This document shows, in pieces, positions 3,592-15,863 of a stretch of DNA of 64,000 nt (position 1 is the first letter of the stretch; each line of letters opens with the position of its first letter). Made by a program: the position numbers and the translations under genes. The notes below the pieces were generated by a model. That model saw nothing but the letters and a program-made list of their open reading frames with translations. It was not told where the DNA came from and did not search any database. Source of the DNA: Octopus vulgaris (taxonomy: Eukaryota); assembly GCA_951406725.2 (NCBI GenBank), contig OX597823.1:16740001-16804000 (forward strand). Direction: 5' to 3'.

Positions 3592-4074
3592 ACAACAATG
3601 ATGATGATAGTGATGATACACATGTTGATGACTTAGTATTGGAGTATTCAGTGTCTGTGTTTCATTACCATGTAAAATCTCACTTCTAATGCATACTTTA
3701 TACAGTCTAACTTTGCACCAAGAGAGACACCCTTTGTTACCAACAATGATAAAAGTTCCCTGAGTTTCTTTCTCCTCACTTCCCATCTCATACTCTGGTT
3801 CCTGTTGCTTTACTTTAACAATCACTTCTAGCCATCCATCTTCTCTGCCCACTATTGCTGGCAATGAGGTCATTGTGATAGTCTTTAGGCATCTCCACCG
3901 TAGGATCCTGTCAGAAGCAACCATCATTAGATTCTAGCACTACTTATGTCTTCTCGATATCAAACTGATAATTGAATCTAAAACAGATGTCTGAAACAGT
4001 TGTACTTTCATTTCCAAGCTGTAATCACTGCCAGCTATTTCTATTCTGATGGCTATTTATGAATCCCTTTTCAG

Positions 4075-4179
4075 TTGATGGATCCAAATTATGGTTTCTA
4101 TGTGTGGCCTTGTGCAGTTGTACTAGCACAGTATATCTGGTATTTCCAAGATGAGGTTAAAGGTAGAAGGATATTGGAG
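4075..4179 (+). CDS. METTL23: METTL23-like exon (LMDPNYGFYVWPCAVVLAQYIWYFQDEVKGRRILE)
   Basis: ttttcag acceptor, gtaaga donor, 105 nt open frame with the YG.YVWP motif. Confidence 0.9.
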
Positions 4180-7100
4180 GTAAGATATCTCTCTTTGTTA
4201 CTATAGCATATTCTTTGAGGTTAAGAAGTCAGTTTTTGTCCTGTCACTGAATTGTGCCTGTGACACAAAACACTTAACACTTGAATGTTTAACATTGTCT
4301 GCCCAGATTAAGCAGATCTATGTTCAAAAGCATTTCAACTATGGACCATTCCATTGTGCGATAGTTGAAAATCAGTGGTTCTCAATACCACAGGGGTGGT
4401 AGTGGGACCAAAGAAGGGCACTAGATGGCTCTGTGTTCCCACCCCATACGACTGCCCCACTTGTCAGTGGTGCATCCTCAGATTTAACAAAAGTCCTTGT
4501 ACAAAAAGAAAACATCCTGAACTACATTTCTTGAAGTCATCTTTACAAATTTTCAATTTTCTTTTCGGAACAAAGAACAATAATAAATTGTAAAAAAAAC
4601 TCGAATGTTTATGTAATGAAGATGGTCAGAAAATATTGGAAGAGATAATAGACAATGGAAAGAAATGATACAAAATAAAAATGTCAACAACAACAGCAAA
4701 GAAAACCAATAAGCAGTGGTGATGAAAAATATATAGACAAATATGTGTGTAAATATATACATGTATGTGTGTGTGTTTATGTATATACATATGTTTGAGG
4801 ATGTGATTATTCTCATTTCAATCCTATACCAAATTATGTCTTTAGTGTATATTCCTTGGATACTTTTGCTGCTTGTACACTGGGTAGATTAGTCAAGCTT
4901 CTTTACCACCAATAAATATATATGTTGTTTTTTTTTCTTGTCTTTTTTCTTAATCTTTTTTTATTAACTATATATATAGTAGGGTCAGTTGGGCACTGTC
5001 TGTGAGAAAAACAGCACCATGATGCAATTCACTCTGGCAGAAATTTAGAAATGACATGCTGTATTGCTTGGCATTCACGCTGGAAGCTCCAATATGGACA
5101 TTTCAGAGTGTTTGGGTGTCAATCTGAGGACAGTACAGAGGATTTGAAAAGAGTTGGATGAGTCTAATGGTAATTACAAAGGTACGGCAGCTTGGAAAAC
5201 TCACTCTGGTCGTTCTGATAAGAAAAGAACTCCTGAATTTGTTGGTGAAATCCAGGCTATGGTTGACAATAATCCCTCCAAGTCAATCACATCCATCTCC
5301 AGGGACATGTGAGTGTCTGAGTTTCTTATCAGGCATATAATGCATAAAGACATTTGGTATTCCTCTTACTAAATGAGAAAGGGCCAATTTTTATCCCAAG
5401 CCATCAAGGACAAGAAGAAAGACTGTGCTACGAAACTTTTGAATAAACTCAAGCATCCCCATCCAACCGAACATGCTTTAGTTTTTCTCAGATGAGAAAA
5501 TTTTCTACCAGGATCAGATGGTGAACACACAGAACAACCATTTGTTTGCCATGTCCCCAAAACGTACCAAGAGTGATAAAAATCAAACATCCAGTTAACA
5601 TCATGGTGTTTTGACTGATCACTAGTGATGGCAATGTTATGCCTCCATTCATCTTCCCACACAGCCTCAGGCTCAATATGCAGGCCTACATCAAATGCCT
5701 GAAGGAGGTAGTGCTACCCTGGGTCAAGAGGTTGGCTGCTGGAAGACTCTATGTCTGACAACAGGACTCTGCACCATGTCACACAGGCAAGAGAACCCAC
5801 TCATGGCTGTCAGACAATTTCTGGGACCACCCCTAATATCTGGCCACCTAAGTCCCCAGACTGCAACCCCCTTGATTATTATGTGTGGGGCACAGTTGAG
5901 AGACCAACAAAACTCATTGTGACACCAAAGATGAAGGATTATGGCAGCATTCACCAACTTAGGTGACTGTTCAGAAGAGTTGCAGGAGATTCTGAAGCCG
6001 TCTGGAGGTCATGGTTGAAGCCGATGGGCGATTTTATTGAATAAATTTACTCCTTAGTATTTCAAGATATTTTATGTAATTTTGGTAAATACTAAGGTAT
6101 TTTTTTGCCGATATTATTATCATTATTTATTCAAATCACTGCCTGGAATTGAACTCGCAATCTTGGGCTTAGTTACCTGCGCTCTTAATAGGCATATAGC
6201 GTAAAGGTTAAGAGCGCAGGCTACTAATCCAAAGATTGCAAATTCAATTCCAGTCAGTACCTTGAATAAATAATAATAATAATAATATCGGCAAAAAAAT
6301 ACCTTAGTAATGAGAACCCAGGGTTGGGTTCAAAATTCTACCAGGACACCTGATGAAGGCTGGAGAGTAAATCAGTTGAAACACTGTGGTAACAACCAAC
6401 AAGATGAGGACACATTCCTGTCCAATGTAAATAATGTGCTTTTATGCACAATGAGTCCATATGAAAGGTACTCTCAAGGTAAATACCATAGTATTCAGTA
6501 TTGTAGCAAAACATCCTTGTTAAGATGGATATAAAGATTGCTTTTTGGAGATCTTTTCGGTTTGAACGGCAGTTTTTAACATAATTTCTAGGTAACTAAA
6601 AAATTTTAAACTTCATATACTGGTAGAATGTGTTTATAAAACATCTTTTTCTCTTGGCTTTATTGAGAAAGTTTTATAGTTTGTAAGATATATGTTGCTT
6701 TTTTACTTCAATTTCTGCAAGTTCAACCAATCAATGACATCTATTGAGGTAAAAAAGCATTCTGTGCCGTATGAATATGTCCCTTGTTTAAGAAACAGAT
6801 TGGGTTTATTTACATTTGTGAAGAAAACAAGATACCCTTCCCCCACCCCTAACCCTAAAAGAGATTGAAATGCAATAGATCGAGTCTAGGGTCATAATTA
6901 TGGGTGACAATTTCATGTGACACCGCTAGAAAAAACTGCCGTTCAAACCGAAAAGATCCCTTTTTTGTATTAATATTGTTTCTGTTGCTAATAGTTAATT
7001 GATTATTTTCACTGTCATTATATTTCAGTTGAGTGCTGGAACTGCTTTGCCAGGAATTGTTGCAGCCAAATGCAAGGCAGAATCCGTGGTTCTCAGTGAT

Positions 7101-10100
7101 AGCTTTTTATTACCTGACAGTCTGCAACATTGTAAGAATTGCTGTGCTGCCAATGAGCTCCCAGATTTACCAGTTATTGGTATTACATGGGGGCTTTTTT
7201 CACCTGACTTAATGAATCTTGCACCTGTTGATATCATTCTTGGTTCTGACTGTTTTTATAACCTGAAAGGTAACTCTTCGTTTATTATTTTGTTGTTTTT
7301 TATTGTTGTTGTTGTTTGTTCTACACGAAGTTAAAATATTTAGACAAAGAATTGTTACTGTACTTAACAGCATTGCTTCTGGTTCCTTACATTAGCAGTT
7401 CAGTGTTGTTGGAGTCAGCTTTGCCTTTCATCTTTTTGGGGTTAATAAAATAGGTACCGTGCCGGTGGCACGTTAAAAGCTCCAACCGATCGTGGCTGAT
7501 GCCGGACCCCCCTGGTACCTGTGCAGGTGGCACGTAAAAAGCACCTACTACACTCGCGGAGTGGTTGGCGTTAGGAAGGGCATCCAGCTGTAGAAACTCT
7601 GCCAGATCAGACTGGAGCCTGGTGTAGCCTCCTGGCTTCCCAGACCCCGGTCGAACCGTCCAACCTGTGCTAGCGCGGAAAACGGACGTTAAACGATGAT
7701 GATGATGTACCACTGGGGGTCAATGTAATCAACTCAGCCCCTCTTCCAAAACTGCTGGTTATGTGCCAAAATTAGAAAGAAAATTATGATATACAGCCCC
7801 ACCCACAAAAGAAAAGCGAATTTGAACTCATTTGACTTCAGCAGGGTTTGAATTGAGAAAATAAAGGAAGATTAAGCATTGCACCGACTTGCTTATAAAT
7901 ATTTCTAACATCAGCACCAGCTTTGCATTTAGTGGGAGGGAAACATCCAAATGCAACAACCTTAGTATTTGACTGTACTTTATTTTAGCTCTCTCTCTCG
8001 CCAACTAGAAGAATAGAAGGCAAAAGTTCACCTCAACTGAAAATGTAAAAGAACATACTCAACATTTTGACCTGCCTGGCTAATAATAATGATGATTTCT
8101 TACCTAGGCACAAGGACAAAAATTTTTAGTGGTGGGGATCTGTTGAATATATCAATCCTAGTAGATGACCGGTACTTTATTTTATCAACACCAGAAAGAT
8201 GAAAGACAAAGTTGACTTTTAGAGGTTTGGATTCAGAACATAAAGAGTTGGAATGAACACCACTAGGAATTTTGTCTAGCACTCTGATGGTTCTTATTTC
8301 TTAACTGCCCACAAGGGGCTAAACACAGAGGGGACAAACGAATTAAGTCAATTATATCAACCCCAGTGTGTAACTGGTACTTATTTAATCGACCCCGAAA
8401 GGATGAAAGGCAAAGTCGACCTCAGCGGAATTTGAACTCAGAACGTAATGGCAGACGAAATACCCATTTCTTTACTACCCACAAGGGGCTAAACACAGAG
8501 GGGACAAACAAGGACAAACGGATTAAGTCAATTATATCAACCCCGGTGCGTAACTGGAACTTATTTAATCGACCCCGAAAGGATGAAAGGCAAAGTCGAC
8601 CTTGGCGGAATTTGAACTCAGAACGTAATGGCAGACGAAATACGGCTACGCATTTCGCCCGGTGTGCTATCGTTTCTGCCAGCTCGCCACCTTCTATGAT
8701 TCTTTAATGATTCTGCCAATCCACTAATAATTCTAATAGTTAATTGTATGTATATATATTTTGTTTTGGTTAACATTATCTCCAGAATTCCAATCAAAAA
8801 TTGTTTGTTAATTCCAGACTTTGAAGACATTTTAGTAACAGTATCATTTATTTTGGAGAAGAACGGTGAATGCCAGTTTTGGTGCACTTACCAAGAAAGA
8901 AGGTAGGTTCTCATGATATTTTTAAAATGGTTTTTTGGTCATCGTACTGCGGCTATGCTGGGGTACTTCCTTCAAGAGTTTCAGTCAATCATATCAGCTG
9001 TAATACTTATACCATATCAATAGAGATCAATATATTTTATCAATCTCTATTGAGATTGTGACTTATATTTGCCATTTAAATATGGCTAACCCCTAAGGGT
9101 GGATGCTACTGTAGTTTGTTGCCCCAGGAGGACACCTCCTCCAGCTGGTTATAGACACACTTTCTGTGTCCTATCAGTATTTGCAAAGGGAAGCCATCCT
9201 TCCCGTCTTCAACTTATGATACACACGGACTCGAGTTTCTGAATATTGATCCGTCATCGGCGTTTGACAATCACAGTTGTCGATGAAAAGTAGGTTCCCA
9301 ATATTTATTATCTATTGAGATTGTTATTTTTAAATAAAAGGAAACAGATGCGCATGTACACACACACACACAAATATGTTATGTTAAGCTCTTCATACTC
9401 TGTGAAACACAGACATCAACAACTTTTCTCATCTCTGGTCTGTCTTTTCTGCATCTCTCCAGTTGGGTCACTTCTTTTTCAGTTCTGCTTCAATATCCCA
9501 CCTGTGTTTCCCAGAGGGGAAGTCTTCCTTTTTCCAGATCTTGGTTTTGAATTACCATTGATACTTCTGTAACCTTGCTTTTTGCTAGGTAGGTATGTTG
9601 GCCTACACAAACCCATTTTCATTTGTGAGATGAGGTGGTCCATATTAGTCTGGCTTCTATCTTTTGACCTGTCCAGCATTGGAGATCCTATCAGAAGAAG
9701 ATGACACTCTGCTGACATAGCTCAGGGTCACTGAGGCCCACAAGCCACACACAACAAAGACTGGACCTTGTGAAGCTTGCTTCCTAACCACATGGTTCCA
9801 GGTTCAGTTCCACTGCATGACACCTTGGGCAAGTGTCTTCTACTCTGGCCTCAGGCCAACCAAAACCTTGTGAGTGGATTTGGTAGACGGAAACTGAAAG
9901 AAGCCCATAATGTATATGTTTATGTGAGTATGTGTTTGTTCCCTCACCATTGCTTGACATTTGATGTTGGTGTGTTCACATCCCTGTAACTTAGTGGTTC
10001 AGCAAAAGACACTGATAGAAGAAGTACTAGGCTTACAAAGAATAAGTCCTGGGGTCAATTTCTTTGACTAAAAAACCCTTTAAAGTAGTGCTCCAGCATG

Positions 10101-13100
10101 GCCACAGTCAAATGACTAAAACAAGCAAAAGAATACACACACAAAGTTTCCACCTACGAAATTGTATTCACAAGGCACAACCATGGTTGTGTGGTTAAGT
10201 ATGGTTCAAGTTCAATCCCATGGCATGGCACATTGGGCAAGTGTCTTCCACTGTAGCCTCAGGTTGACTAATATCTTGCAATTGAAATTTAGTAGGAAGA
10301 AATTGCATGGAAGTCCAACCTTTATGTACTTTATCATCACTGATTTATTGCTCACTTTTCCATGCTTTCATGGGTCAAACAAAATTCATTGAGGCAGATT
10401 TTCTTTGTCTGAACACACCACCTTTCACCTACCCTTGCCAGTCTCCATTGGTCAGGCATGTATTTCACAGAATATTAGAAATGGATGACACAACTTGTAT
10501 GATATTTATTCACAACTATCATGTGGTGTCAAAACAAGGGAGATCCAAATACACATGAGCACATATACATGTATCATGATCATCATTTAACTTGAGCTTT
10601 CTAAGCTGGCATAGGTTGAATGACTTGACAATCTGGCAAGCCATAAGGCCATGTCAGGCTCCAATGTCAGCTTTGATATGGCTTCTATATCTGGATGCCT
10701 TTTTTAATGCCAACCACTTTACATAGTATAATGAGATGTTTTTCATGCAACTGGCATGGTTTCTAAATCATTGTCATTGCTTAATCTCTGTCTCCCATGC
10801 TGACCTGGGTAGGACAGTTTGACAGGAGGCAGAAGCCTGTACCAGACTTCTGTGTCTGTTTTGACAGGATTTTTACAGCTGGATGCCCTTCCTAACACCA
10901 ACCACCAGCACAGTAGACTGAGTGCTTTTTATGTGGCACAAGTACAGGTGAGGTTAGTTTAGGCAAGGTTACAGTGTGGACTGGATGCTTTTTAAGTGGC
11001 ACCTGCACTGACAGGGTCACCAAGTAACTTGCAAGACGAGGGGAGGGGGCAAGTGCCAGAGCATACCCTTGAGGTTCGAAGATCATAATATAAGTGGCAG
11101 AACATTGCCAAAGACGTATGATTAGAGAGTGGTGAATACTTGGGTATATAGAGTGGTTGGGGCTACCAGACAGCAATGATACTGAGAAACAGGGCTGTGA
11201 GGATATGAGTGAGAGGTAAGCATAGCACATGGAGGAAATGTGAGGAAGAGAAGAGATGTAATTTGGGTTGTTGAGGTAGAGTGTGAAAAGTTTTCTTGTT
11301 ACATGTAGGTGGAACCCACAGTGCTTCTAGAATTCAGTTTTGTTGATGTGGGCAGGTCTTCTCAAGAACCTCATATTGTCAGACATCATGGTCCATTGCC
11401 ATTTCCTCAGTGAAGCCCAACATCCTGAGATTGGTCCTTACCACATCATCCTGTCTTCCTGGTTCTCCTTCCACAGGTACCATCCACTTTCAGTGAATGG
11501 CTCTTCTTTATACAGCTATTCCCAGTGTGTATGTATATGTGTGTGTGTCTGTATATATATAAATACAGTGTACATAAGAGGTATCTGTCATAGGATTCCT
11601 GGCACACTAGAAGGAACAGCTAAAATCCAAAACCACTATTAGGGATAAACCTTAAAGGGAATGAAAAATAAAAACATTTACCATCTATCTCCTGGACCAT
11701 GGTTTCCTACTTTTTTTTAGCAAATAAAATAATTTGCTAGGTGAAGTCTTCATCAGCAGGTACGCCTAGATTAAACATATAAGTACAAAGCAATTCAACA
11801 AGTGCCCCGTGCTTATATATTATAATTTTTCAAATCCACCATGCAAGATAGATGGTAAATGTTTTTATTTTTCATTCCCTTCAAGGTTTATCCCTAATAG
11901 TGGTTTTGGATTTTGGCTGTTCCTTCTAGCATACCAGGAATCCTATGACGGATACCTCTTATGTGTTTAAATGTACACTTATTTTATATGAATAATATAT
12001 AGTCTGTTGACTAATTTTTCTACATGCTAGGCCACTGGTAGTAAAAATTTCTTAAATTTTTATTAATTATATATACATACAGAGATAGAAAGAGGAAAGC
12101 AAAAAGAAAATGCTCTACTTGTCTACACAATGATATTGCTTGGGTAGTGATGACATTTGGTATCCCTACTAGAGCAGATAGAAAGGAAACTGATTCTACA
12201 GACTTGCATTTTTTTTTCCTTCTAGCAGCTGTTAATACTTCTGTGGCAACCTTGAAGAAAGACAACAACTTGCTGTACTATCAAAGTGACAAGTGCATTC
12301 CCTACTTTGCCAAAAACTTCCAGCAGCTATATTGCTGAGTCTAGCTGCTTTCTCTACTGTCATATTTTTGATGGCATTTTCAACTGTGTAGCTGCCAATT
12401 TCAATACTTGGTCCCTTGTCTCGTTCAGCAACCTTTCAGTATCTTTCGTTTTTGGATTTGGTTTGCAAGATTCATTAACGAAAGGAATGCAATGTAAATA
12501 ACGGACAGAGTCAAGGTTGCAAGACACAATGAAAATTTTAGGAAAATATAAATAAGAAATAAGTGGAAATTTTATCGGTGAGTGTGTTACATTATAAGGC
12601 ACAAAAAGAAAATGACTCTCCCCAGACACAACAGAATTTCTGTATCTGCTTCTCATAAAGGGCAAGTAGTGTTCATTACATATACACTTTTCATCAATAA
12701 TATTCTGACTCATACCAATTTCTTTATTACCCACAAGGGGCTAAACACAGAGGGGACAAACAAGGACAGACATAGGTATTAAATCGATTACATCGACCCC
12801 AGTGCGTAACTGGTACTTAATTTATTGACCCCGAAAGGATGAAAGGCCAAGTCGACCTCGGCGGAATTTGAACTCACAACGTAACGGCAGACGAAATACC
12901 GCTAAGCATTTCGCCCGCCGTGCTAACGTTTCTGGCAGCTCACCGCCTTTTATGACTCATACCAACACACTTCTTTACAGTGTAGAAAACCGCTTACTTT
13001 CAGTTACTAAATGAGTTACATACCTGATGCTTTGCCTCTCTCCTACCTACCTTTTATGGTTTCTTGCTCCCCACTTTCTCAGCTTGTTTTAGCTTTTGCC

Positions 13101-14347
13101 TCTTTTACATCAGCTCTTTAGTTGAAACCTTGGTTCATCCACTAATCTGGTATGCAGCTCTGTTAGTCTCTATTTCCTCCCACTTTTTATCATAAACAGC
13201 ACCAAGTACTTCTTTAAAACTACATCTGGATTAGGGATCTTTCAGCTCCCATACATAAGTACCAGTTGAGCACTGGGGTCAATGTAATCAACTCAGCCCC
13301 TCTTTCAAAATTACTGGTTTTGTAACTCTTCTAGACTACATTAACTAGTACATTCTTCAAAAGGCAAAGACATAGTATTCACAACTCTCCCTATCCCATT
13401 CCTAATAGCATGAATTCTATCTGGCTAGCATATTAACCTGAGTGGTAACAGATTAGGTGTGGGTTGATCAAACAATTGGATGCTCATATGTCTAAATCAA
13501 TGGGAGACTACATTCCAGTAGGTACTTGACTCACATTTTGTTTAAGCTAGTAGGACATGACATGGGGTATATTTGGTTTCTATTTCTAACAGACCAAGGA
13601 AACATGTCTCCTCATTGTTTTTTTTTCCTTCAGGACAGTGTTGGACAAATGTTTAATTGGAGTATACAATTGTACTATCATGACTTCTCAAGGCAGACAA
13701 TAACTTTAAGAAATTTTTCATGAAGCTCCTCTCTTCCTAATCATGTGGTTTTGGGTTCAGTTTCACTGTCCATCACAGGCTAACCAAAACCTTGATTTGG
13801 CAAATGGAAACTGATGGAAGCCAATTATATATGTTTGTGTATACCCATCTTAAAAACCACATGATGGTTGCAAATAAGCATCATTAGCATACAAGTGATG
13901 TTGATTTCCAGTCTTCAGTGGAAATGGCCATGGGGAAATATTACCTTACTTAGAAACTGGTGAGTTTTGGCAGCAGGAAGGACATCTGGCCAACGAAACT
14001 CTGTCTCAATGAATTCTGTGTGACCCATGCAAGCATAGAAAAGTGAATGTTAAAACAACGAGGATGAAAGAAATTTAATTTTTGCCAACTTAACAGACTT
14101 GGTTTAGATCATTCATAGCAGCTATTATACAGCTCTAGTAACTTTTTTCAATAATTGCTCTTCATTTTTAATTTTCAGCTCAGACCAATCTATAGAACCT
14201 CTGCTGAAACACTGGAATCTGAATTGTAGTCAAGTATCTCTGGTTGAATTCCAAGCTGATGGTCCAGACATTGCCAATTCAGGCCTCCCAGGAAATCATA
14301 CCATTCAAATGCTGAAGATATTTAAGAGAAAGCCTAAGATTGGATGA
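4075..14347 (+). CDS. METTL23: METTL23-like methyltransferase gene (5'-partial), join(4075..4179,7029..7269,8818..8902,14179..14347)
   Basis: Four GT-AG exons with consistent phases (0,1,2) splice into YGFYVWPCAVVLAQYIW...ILELSAGTALPGIVAAKC...DIILGSDCFY...DFEDILVTVSFIL...TYQERSSDQSIEPLLKHW...LPGNHTIQML, colinear with METTL23 as I recall it. Confidence 0.93.
5029..6040 (+). pseudogene. Decayed Tc1/mariner-superfamily transposase (probably DD37D/maT type)
   Basis: FSDEKIF, QQDSAPCH and WPPKSPDCNPLDYYVWG motifs interrupted by stops and frameshifts. Confidence 0.85.
6091..6308. repeat. Inverted repeat of a tRNA-like head, arms about 6091-6188 and 6208-6308
   Basis: actaaggtatttttttgccgatatt versus aatatcggcaaaaaaataccttagt. 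Confidence 0.85.
6550..6958. mobile_element. MITE with gatcttttcggtttgaacggcagtttt TIRs
   Basis: Terminal inverted repeats of about 27 bp; second copy at 42042-42433. Confidence 0.85.
7029..7269 (+). CDS. METTL23: METTL23-like exon with SAM-binding motif I (LSAGTALPG) and DIILGSDCFY
   Basis: tttcag acceptor, gtaact donor, 241 nt; lies within ORF 6999..7334. Confidence 0.93.
7458..7707 (+). mobile_element. (GAT)n-tailed retroposon family 3 (further copies near 15310, 24214, 27028, 33265, 39750, 50416, 56905, 63063)
   Basis: ttggcgttaggaagggcatccagctgtagaaac core, ends acgttaaacgatgatgat; variable 5' truncation. Confidence 0.85.
8294..8690 (-). mobile_element. SINE family 2, head-to-tail dimer
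   Basis: Two tandem units with gagttcaaattcc B-box-like motif and gcctttcatcctttcggggtcga core. Confidence 0.85.
8818..8902 (+). CDS. METTL23: METTL23-like exon (DFEDILVTVSFILEKNGECQFWCTYQERS)
   Basis: ttccag acceptor, gtaggt donor, phase 1 in and phase 2 out match neighbours. Confidence 0.92.
9060..9310 (-). mobile_element. 251-bp retroposon with 14-bp TSD carrying the hammerhead motif
   Basis: tctattgagattgt at 9046-9059 and 9311-9324. Confidence 0.75.
9225..9263 (-). ncRNA. Minimal type I hammerhead motif (CCGAUGA variant)
   Basis: acg-CCGAUGA-cggau caau auuca-GAAA-cucgag-UC-cgu. Confidence 0.62.
10770..11520 (-). mobile_element. Second decayed copy of the same RTE-type LINE 3' region
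   Basis: Colinear similarity to 1061-2420 with deletions. Confidence 0.65.
11572..11964. repeat. Inverted repeat, arms 11572-11690 and 11846-11964
   Basis: About 119-bp arms with few mismatches. Confidence 0.9.
11691..11760 (-). ncRNA. Type I hammerhead ribozyme motif
   Basis: cctg-CUGAUGA-long helix II-GAAA-ccaugg-UC-cagg; all core residues present. Confidence 0.7.
12720..12948 (-). mobile_element. SINE family 2 with 13-bp TSD
   Basis: TSD tgactcataccaa at 12706-12718 and 12953-12965. Confidence 0.88.
14179..14347 (+). CDS. METTL23: METTL23-like last coding exon, stop TGA 14345-14347
   Basis: ttttcag acceptor; SDQSIEPLLKHWNLNC...LPGNHTIQMLKIFKRKPKIG*. Confidence 0.92.
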
Positions 14348-15863
14348 AGCTGCTTCCTTCATACCCACTTCTGCAATCATATTAACTGTCAATTTTACAG
14401 TACAATACTGCAAATGGTGACAACAAACTATCTGCAAGTTTTACTTGAAAGACAGACAAGGGTTAGCAACAAGAACATCTAGCCATAAAAATCCTATCCT
14501 CTTCTTCATCTAACCCATGCTAGCATGGAAAAAAAAAAACAGATGTTAAACCAACAAATGAATGAATACGACCAGGATCTTGGAATATCACAATTTGTAT
14601 CAGGCTATGGAATGGTGAAATAGAGAGACATTTAGATAGGTAAGTACTATGAATACACTTACCACAAGGGGAAAATCTTGGATTTGTGGAACAAAAGATA
14701 ATCATTAAATTAATAATGGATATGTTTGAAAAGAGAAAAAAAAAGTGTTTATCACCTGCCCATTTCTTAGTGTGTGTTCAACTCCAAAGTGGCAGAGGAA
14801 TAACCATTCAACTGCAAAATGGTTTAAATCCAACAGGTTGTTAGCATTCAACCATGAAGAGGAGTAAGTGCCTGAATCCCCTACCAAACCAATGGTAGTG
14901 ACTAACGTTGGAATGTGCTTCAAATAACAATACAAGAGACTTCTAGAATCAACAAAGAAGCCTCTACATAGTCACCGACCAGCTAGATATAGCTGCCATG
15001 TCTCCCTTATTTATACCATCTTGAAAGAAGGGAAGGATAACATATGTAGTTTTGTGTGGGGTTGAAATGAGGTCATAGCTGGAGCACTTTTAAGGTTAAA
15101 AAACTATTTTCATATGAAAATTGAATTCAGCACAAACATTTCTCAATTATACAAGCTCCACCCACCCCCATTCCTTCCATAATTGTAGATACCCAATTTA
15201 GTAGAGTGCCTTATCGATCAAGAGATTGTTGCCAACAGATTATGTACTTTCAGTGTGTTCAATCTTTGAACAAGATTGAACTTAGGGTAGATCCTTATAT
15301 ATGACTGCATTGCCGGTGGCACGTAAAAAGCAACATCCAATCGTGGCTGTTTGCCAGCCTTGTCTGGCACATAAAAAGCACCCACTACACTCATGGAGTG
15401 GTTGGCGTTAGGAAGGGCATCCAGCTGTAGAAACATTGCCTGATCAGACCGGGCCTGGTGCAGCCCTTCTGGCTTCCCAGACCCCAGTTGAACTGTCCAA
15501 CCCATGCCAACATGGAAAGCAGACACTAAATGATGATGATGATGATTTAGAGTATAGTATTGGTCAGACTTAATACATGTCTCTTTATACAGAAATTGGC
15601 TGTATTTTTACTATGGTACTTATTAATGACTAAATGGGAATCAAACCACCATATGTTTGGTGTTACCAAACTGAGCAGTGCAGCTTCTAGACATGGTTCA
15701 TGTAATGTAACTTGGTAGACATATGTAACTGATTGCGTTAAATGTTAATGAGGCTAGATTTTGTTTCTAGTCTACCACCATACAGTAAATATGCTATGAG
15801 GTTTCATTGCATTGGTAGGGCTGAACGTCTGCAGTCAGCAAGTGCTTAAGGAATTATGAGTAA

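Follow-up and report, generated by a model that had tools for sequence, protein, structure and literature searches.

Non-LTR retrozymes of animals are described as non-coding, AT-rich repeats with a monomer of a few hundred bases and one type I hammerhead, found partly in tandem and in genomes that also hold Penelope-like elements, and it has been proposed that these elements mobilise them (Cervera and de la Pena, 2020, PMC7229834; Li et al., 2026, bioRxiv 10.64898/2026.07.22.740005). Hammerhead motifs with a short palindromic stem III are reported to require a second ribozyme for cleavage (PMC4209133, PMC6765202). Endonuclease-bearing Penelope-like elements, for their part, are characterised by an inverted 5'-truncated copy, an optional tail at one end, and a bias toward (TA)n (PMC8557442, PMC3846280), and the origin of their inverted ends is treated as an open mechanism (PMC8557442). 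In vitro, the Poseidon element PAc of Anolis uses two internal start sites and extends both strands, its ribozyme being dispensable (Frangieh et al., 2024, PMC11167929). For Penelope-like elements, publications already describe an inverted copy, a tail at one end, and a preference for microsatellites, and it has been proposed that they mobilise retrozymes; here, the known "inverted copy plus tail" signature occurs on a retrozyme lacking an ORF.

The insertion lies in the last intron of METTL23 of Octopus vulgaris, within a 64,000-nucleotide stretch of contig OX597823.1 (positions 16,740,001 to 16,804,000), hereafter called the window. A preliminary description of this DNA had reported a hammerhead whose predicted cut site (11695/11694) abuts the arm of an inverted repeat at 11572..11964. 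The cut was located as proposed, the GUC triplet occupying 11697-11695 on the minus strand, and so were the 119-bp arms, the inverted arm starting at 11690, 4 nt from the cut. Each ungapped arm (11572-11690; 11846-11964) spans 119 nt, and the two are 95% complementary. However, the insertion itself is larger, covering 11557-12070: since the left arm has a 10-nt deletion and the right arm extends 106 nt beyond 11964, the 119 bp represent the ungapped shared part only. The features are listed below, with monomer positions (c) counted from the first base past the predicted cut (c1 = window 11694).

11557..12070, strand not applicable: whole insertion, a head-to-head pair of 5'-truncated copies of a 465-nt monomer, lying within a (TA)n/(CA)n microsatellite
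11557..11847, minus strand: left arm, monomer c314 to c148 across the cut site; outer end = start site A
11846..11847, strand not applicable: inversion junction, c314 joined to c5, 2-nt overlap
11846..12070, plus strand: right arm, c5 to c243; outer end = start site B; no hammerhead in this arm
11975..12070, plus strand: "tail", the stretch between both start sites (c149/161 to c243, 83 nt), in a single arm only
11691..11760, minus strand: type I hammerhead motif with stem I CCUG/CAGG, core CUGAUGA + GAAA, GUC triplet, and a short stem III with palindrome, ACCAUGGU
11694..11695, minus strand: predicted cleavage site, after C 11695
11718..11739, minus strand: 8-bp hairpin inside loop II of the hammerhead
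8903..14178, plus strand: last intron (GT..AG) of METTL23, host of the insertion, from exon mapping by protein match
near 4072-4185, 7020-7271, 8819-8902, and 14179-14347, plus strand: the four mapped coding exons of METTL23

The 5' ends of the two monomer copies meet at the junction. The left arm, whose deletion lies near 11576, is 90% identical to the family consensus, and the right arm is 94% identical as measured to 12065, near which it likely carries a 14-nt deletion between TTATTA repeats. Directly left of the insertion, at 11300-11520, lies a different repeat with more RNA reads than the retrozyme.

The window copy is an ordinary member of a dispersed family. As defined from its copies, the monomer is 465 nt, circularly continuous, AT-rich (33-34% GC), and non-coding, the longest ATG frames in three subfamilies being 41, 29, and 87 aa. 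In the 40 candidates scored out of 2695 there were 129 matches to the window insertion, and two probes had 1309 and 528 exact matches while reversed controls had none; the family numbers many hundreds of copies in the octopus genome. We sampled 237 loci, 222 of them unique. End statistics were based on 193 loci found by probes 3' of the cut and drawn mostly from contigs 1-3, among the matches listed, and arms were counted as at risk only 5' of the probe. Thirty loci were excluded from junction-position statistics since their query contained the junction and would have favoured similar ones. In comparison with published animal retrozymes, as far as their accounts go (PMC7229834; bioRxiv 10.64898/2026.07.22.740005), the octopus family occurs mostly as sub-monomer head-to-head pairs rather than arrays (no long tandem arrays were present among 331 sampled segments), has a 465-nt monomer and a long loop II with its own hairpin, and has as its commonest subfamily one in which U3 goes with an A.A mismatch. 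The main text of bioRxiv 10.64898/2026.07.22.740005 never uses the word "tail", nor does PMC7229834 use "inverted". Our literature search yielded no published description of the 465-nt family; Repbase, Dfam, and the supplements of papers lay outside it and may contain the family. One distant relative, which carries a canonical hammerhead, can be aligned with the greater part of the monomer at E 1e-6 to 3e-6, though with high bias, and suggests that the octopus genome has several related retrozyme families. This relative, at L241:545-963 (minus strand), also has a similar tail region. Another short, inverted, hammerhead-bearing repeat sits beside a Penelope-like copy at L249:2937-3120, and a hammerhead-pattern match near 92-150 of L269 is in unrelated sequence.

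Instead of an independent retrozyme, the 465-nt repeat could be the pseudo-LTR, or terminal repeat, belonging to an autonomous Penelope-like element, its copies being truncated ends. The insertion anatomy would be the same, and our partner search covered just two or three abundant families. Against this, copies exceeding one monomer (29/331 segments; 3/331 are longer than two monomers) run into the previous unit and not into an ORF, and the flanks of 6/237 loci matched a Penelope-like protein, none as the end of an ORF leading into the repeat. Among the sampled copies, we found neither an ORF with RT and GIY-YIG contiguous with the repeat nor a common upstream non-monomer sequence at a shared position. 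We therefore regard the pseudo-LTR reading as highly improbable. Young, abundant autonomous RT/GIY-YIG elements do occur in the octopus genome, and one such family appears to carry its own 33-nt optional tail; among 46 GIY-YIG element loci (L238-L283), none had a contiguous match to the monomer or tail. L258-L265 and L281-L283 comprise two young families whose frames are 781 and 775 aa long; both have an upstream ORF, and the family with the 775-aa frame forms 4271-bp tandems in many identical copies. Neither of the two matched the monomer or, by a relaxed pattern, a hammerhead.

The outer ends of copies are fixed. They peak at c160 (81 segments), c148 (14), and c243 (72), i.e., at site A (c148-160) and, 83 nt away, site B (c243). 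Head-to-head pairs occupied 111/193 unbiased loci, while tail-to-tail pairs numbered 2 in all 222. Classified by outer ends, these 111 inversions comprised 77 A+B, 4 A+A, 1 B+B, and 29 with an unclassified end, such that the two arms used different sites in 77/82 classifiable cases (p 6e-18). Solo copies ended at A (29), at B (32), or elsewhere (12). The B arm passed site A in 65/77. In a separate test set of 82 A+B inversions drawn from all 222 loci, a TA run of at least 8 nt lay beside 63, compared with 7% of distal controls; the flanks are microsatellite, and target-site duplications are unreadable in (TA)n. The Penelope link made in the preliminary description is supported by the frequency of head-to-head copies and by the (TA)n targets.

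This anatomy resembles the Penelope-like insertion unit in its head-to-head arms, one-ended tail, junction microhomology and palindromes, and microsatellite targets, but the octopus repeat has no ORF and its tail measures 83 nt where 30-40 are given (PMC8557442, PMC3846280). With PAc, as reported, it shares two internal RT start sites that bracket the tail, an AT-rich target, extension of both strands, a ribozyme that is not needed for insertion, and, at low read depth in the octopus, a lack of RNA reads ending at the cut; the likeness drawn is one of architecture, and PAc shows no strand difference in start-site use, whereas the octopus arms differ in nearly every classifiable inversion (PMC11167929). 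The two arms of an insertion belong to the same subfamily in 114/126 pairs (46% expected by chance), and their likeness, 89% compared with 86% for same-subfamily pairs, is higher in 69/82; this could reflect a shared source or later gene conversion. Twin priming of LINE-1 also produces head-to-head inversions with a variable inner junction and microhomology. It differs from the octopus case, in which the arms overlap in sequence (122/138), both priming sites are fixed, and there is no poly(A). Junctions of the octopus family overlap by a mean of 2.6 nt versus 0.76 by chance, a value inflated by BLAST overlaps, and strict mapping showed overlaps of 1-5 nt in 26/51.

An inverted arm might also arise by self-priming, the cDNA folding back on an antisense template, rather than by double priming at the target, as has been proposed for Penelope elements of rotifers (PMC3846280). 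Indeed, both inner ends fell within 10 nt of one another in 25/111 junctions, about three times the 7.7 obtained after shuffling. Most junctions, however, including c314/c5 in the window, bring together positions far apart, the lengths of the two arms show no correlation (rho -0.10), and fold-back alone leaves it unexplained that one arm starts at A and the other at B. As a general account we consider it very unlikely.

The preliminary description had interpreted the inverted arm as copied from the RNA segment that lies on the 3' side of the self-cleavage site. In such a scheme, cleavage by the ribozyme would create a 5' end at which RT runs off, and this end, trimmed by a few bases, would fix where the arm starts. 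The window arm does begin at c5, and across the 193 loci ends lying no more than 10 nt from the cut came at about twice the flanking rate (39, p 0.002), as they did in 79 clean inversions (23, p 0.0004). Four window sizes were tried, 10 nt being one of them: 8, 17, 39, and 50 ends fell within 2, 5, 10, and 15 nt (p 0.15, 0.14, 0.002, and 0.011 versus flanks). Arm boundaries showed no peak at the cut itself. None of 315 5' ends was at +1, the 7 clean-inversion ends within 5 nt were no excess (p 0.42), and the 10-nt window on the cut ranked 119/424. Among arms reaching the cut region, 140/179 read through it. Of the 23 clean-inversion ends within 10 nt, 14 were at +7/+8, which would suit a trimmed end, yet these positions are also the first AT-rich microhomology. 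Moreover, ends were as frequent on the immediate upstream side of the cut, a place that run-off cannot reach, and arms ending at +1 to +10 were as frequent in the canonical-core subfamily (8/82) as in the U3 subfamily (11/101). Strict mapping, which kept 51/111 junctions and misplaced the window's left-arm end at c321 owing to private mismatches, found 1/51 fitting +1 where a mean of 0.92 per position is expected, and the 10-nt excess fell to p 0.04 in the 36 strictly mapped junctions that were not fold-backs. In three RNA runs, reads resembling the family were few, in both orientations, and mostly <90% alike, and no read ends piled up at the predicted cut, which at this depth and with this library type is weak evidence. 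Cleavage followed by run-off is therefore an unlikely source of the arm ends. The hammerhead cut does not define the ends of insertions, and the claimed connection between cut and arm is largely refuted.

An arm end close to the cut, as in the window, is not rare, since an inner end lay within 5 nt in 12/111 inversions. Because outer ends are fixed in other copies and inner ends are not, the 4-nt distance in the window is most likely chance. Hot spots of arm ends stronger than the cut region were found at c308-317, a GC-rich palindrome that includes the window copy's other inner end, and at the loop II hairpin, with 23 arm 5' ends at c421-430. The excess of ends up to 10 nt from the cut, about twofold, may stem from palindromes and AT microhomology or from a minority of run-off events; being weak and broad, it leaves some space for a minor contribution of the cut.

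The ribozyme of the window copy appears to be weakened. On the minus strand from 11760 to 11691 the motif reads CCUG-CUGAUGA, 43 nt, GAAA-CCAUGG-UC|CAGG, and it was the sole match to a relaxed hammerhead pattern on both strands of the window. The hammerhead core had been called intact. All its conserved catalytic bases are indeed present, but stem II, expected to be AGAC/GUC(U/A), reads AGAC/GUAG, with 2/4 pairs left and both core-side pairs broken. What had been taken for an extended helix (tagcaaat/atttgcta) is a hairpin inside loop II and not stem II. The GUAG strand occurs in 1/145 complete motifs, that of the window copy alone; this copy carries C3, although its remaining bases place it in the U3 subfamily. 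A closed stem II had an ensemble probability of 0.03, compared with a subfamily mean of 0.35. The energy needed to reach the hammerhead fold, 7.5 kcal/mol, was mid-range, with 32/65 copies lower, but folding energy did not separate good from bad copies in this set of 65, which held only 9 of the canonical subfamily since the pattern missed their 7-nt stem III. The minimum-energy fold of the 70-nt motif was not a hammerhead (z -1.46), and an Rfam scan of 9000-15000 returned no hammerhead model, only two weak, unrelated matches. The insertion (11557-12070) contains one hammerhead and no partner hammerhead in cis.

Across the 222 loci we found 145 complete motifs, of which 38 have a canonical core and 22 have all helices. 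Pairing in stem II is kept through base changes, e.g., C-G 108, U-A 9, and U-G 4. C3 is found in the canonical-core subfamily, where an A-U pair closes stem II and stem III mostly measures 7 nt (17/26). The commonest subfamily (222/391 segments) combines U3 with the A.A mismatch, and it spread with this non-canonical core. A U3-G8 combination lowers hammerhead activity.

We consider it very probable that the insertion consists of two shortened, head-to-head retrozyme copies, likely placed into (TA)n by a Penelope-like enzyme, with one strand made from each fixed site. The template would be a multimeric or circular RNA, and its cut site would be copied through no differently from the rest of it. 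A protein with GIY-YIG and RT domains would nick both target strands and prime at sites A and B, and both cDNAs would stop early; microhomology or fold-back would then join them, preferentially where there are palindromes and hairpins. The window junction at c5 would then be one draw from a broad distribution, and the window copy, with a single antisense hammerhead, a weakened stem II, and no partner in cis, would have been dead on arrival. A circular or uncut template would be expected to give read-through of the cut, so the ribozyme may still have a role in making the template. Several observations speak against this double-priming explanation: none of the 46 GIY-YIG element loci supplied an autonomous partner, 29/111 inversions have an outer end outside A or B, the tail exceeds the published length, and the twofold excess of ends near the cut is unaccounted for. 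The stronger claim, that an ORF-less retrozyme with the full Penelope signature proves mobilisation by Penelope enzymes through asymmetric double priming and that its top subfamily spread after the ribozyme was disabled, we hold only tentatively, giving it somewhat less than an even chance. The anatomy supports retrozymes riding on Penelope-like enzymes, which had until now been argued from co-occurrence and phylogeny. Since the family is short, abundant, and non-coding, its copies can be counted to trace how inverted ends arise in Penelope-type insertion, and for the in vitro system already in place (PMC11167929) the A+B rule makes a concrete prediction.

The host protein matches METTL23 of Octopus sinensis, at 99% over one exon. 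As the preliminary description had noted, the motif is antisense to the gene, with METTL23 on the plus strand and the hammerhead on the minus strand of its last intron. Its suggestion of intronic dsRNA also agrees with our prediction of a long hairpin of 126 pairs formed by the arms in METTL23 pre-mRNA; for an effect of this predicted hairpin on METTL23 we found no evidence. RNA reads at METTL23 revealed no splice joints and were swamped by other repeats. High-copy SINE-like repeats with very high read depth lie in the METTL23 introns at window positions 12769-13306, 8170-8680, 7400-7660, and 9700-10200, some of them as inverted pairs.
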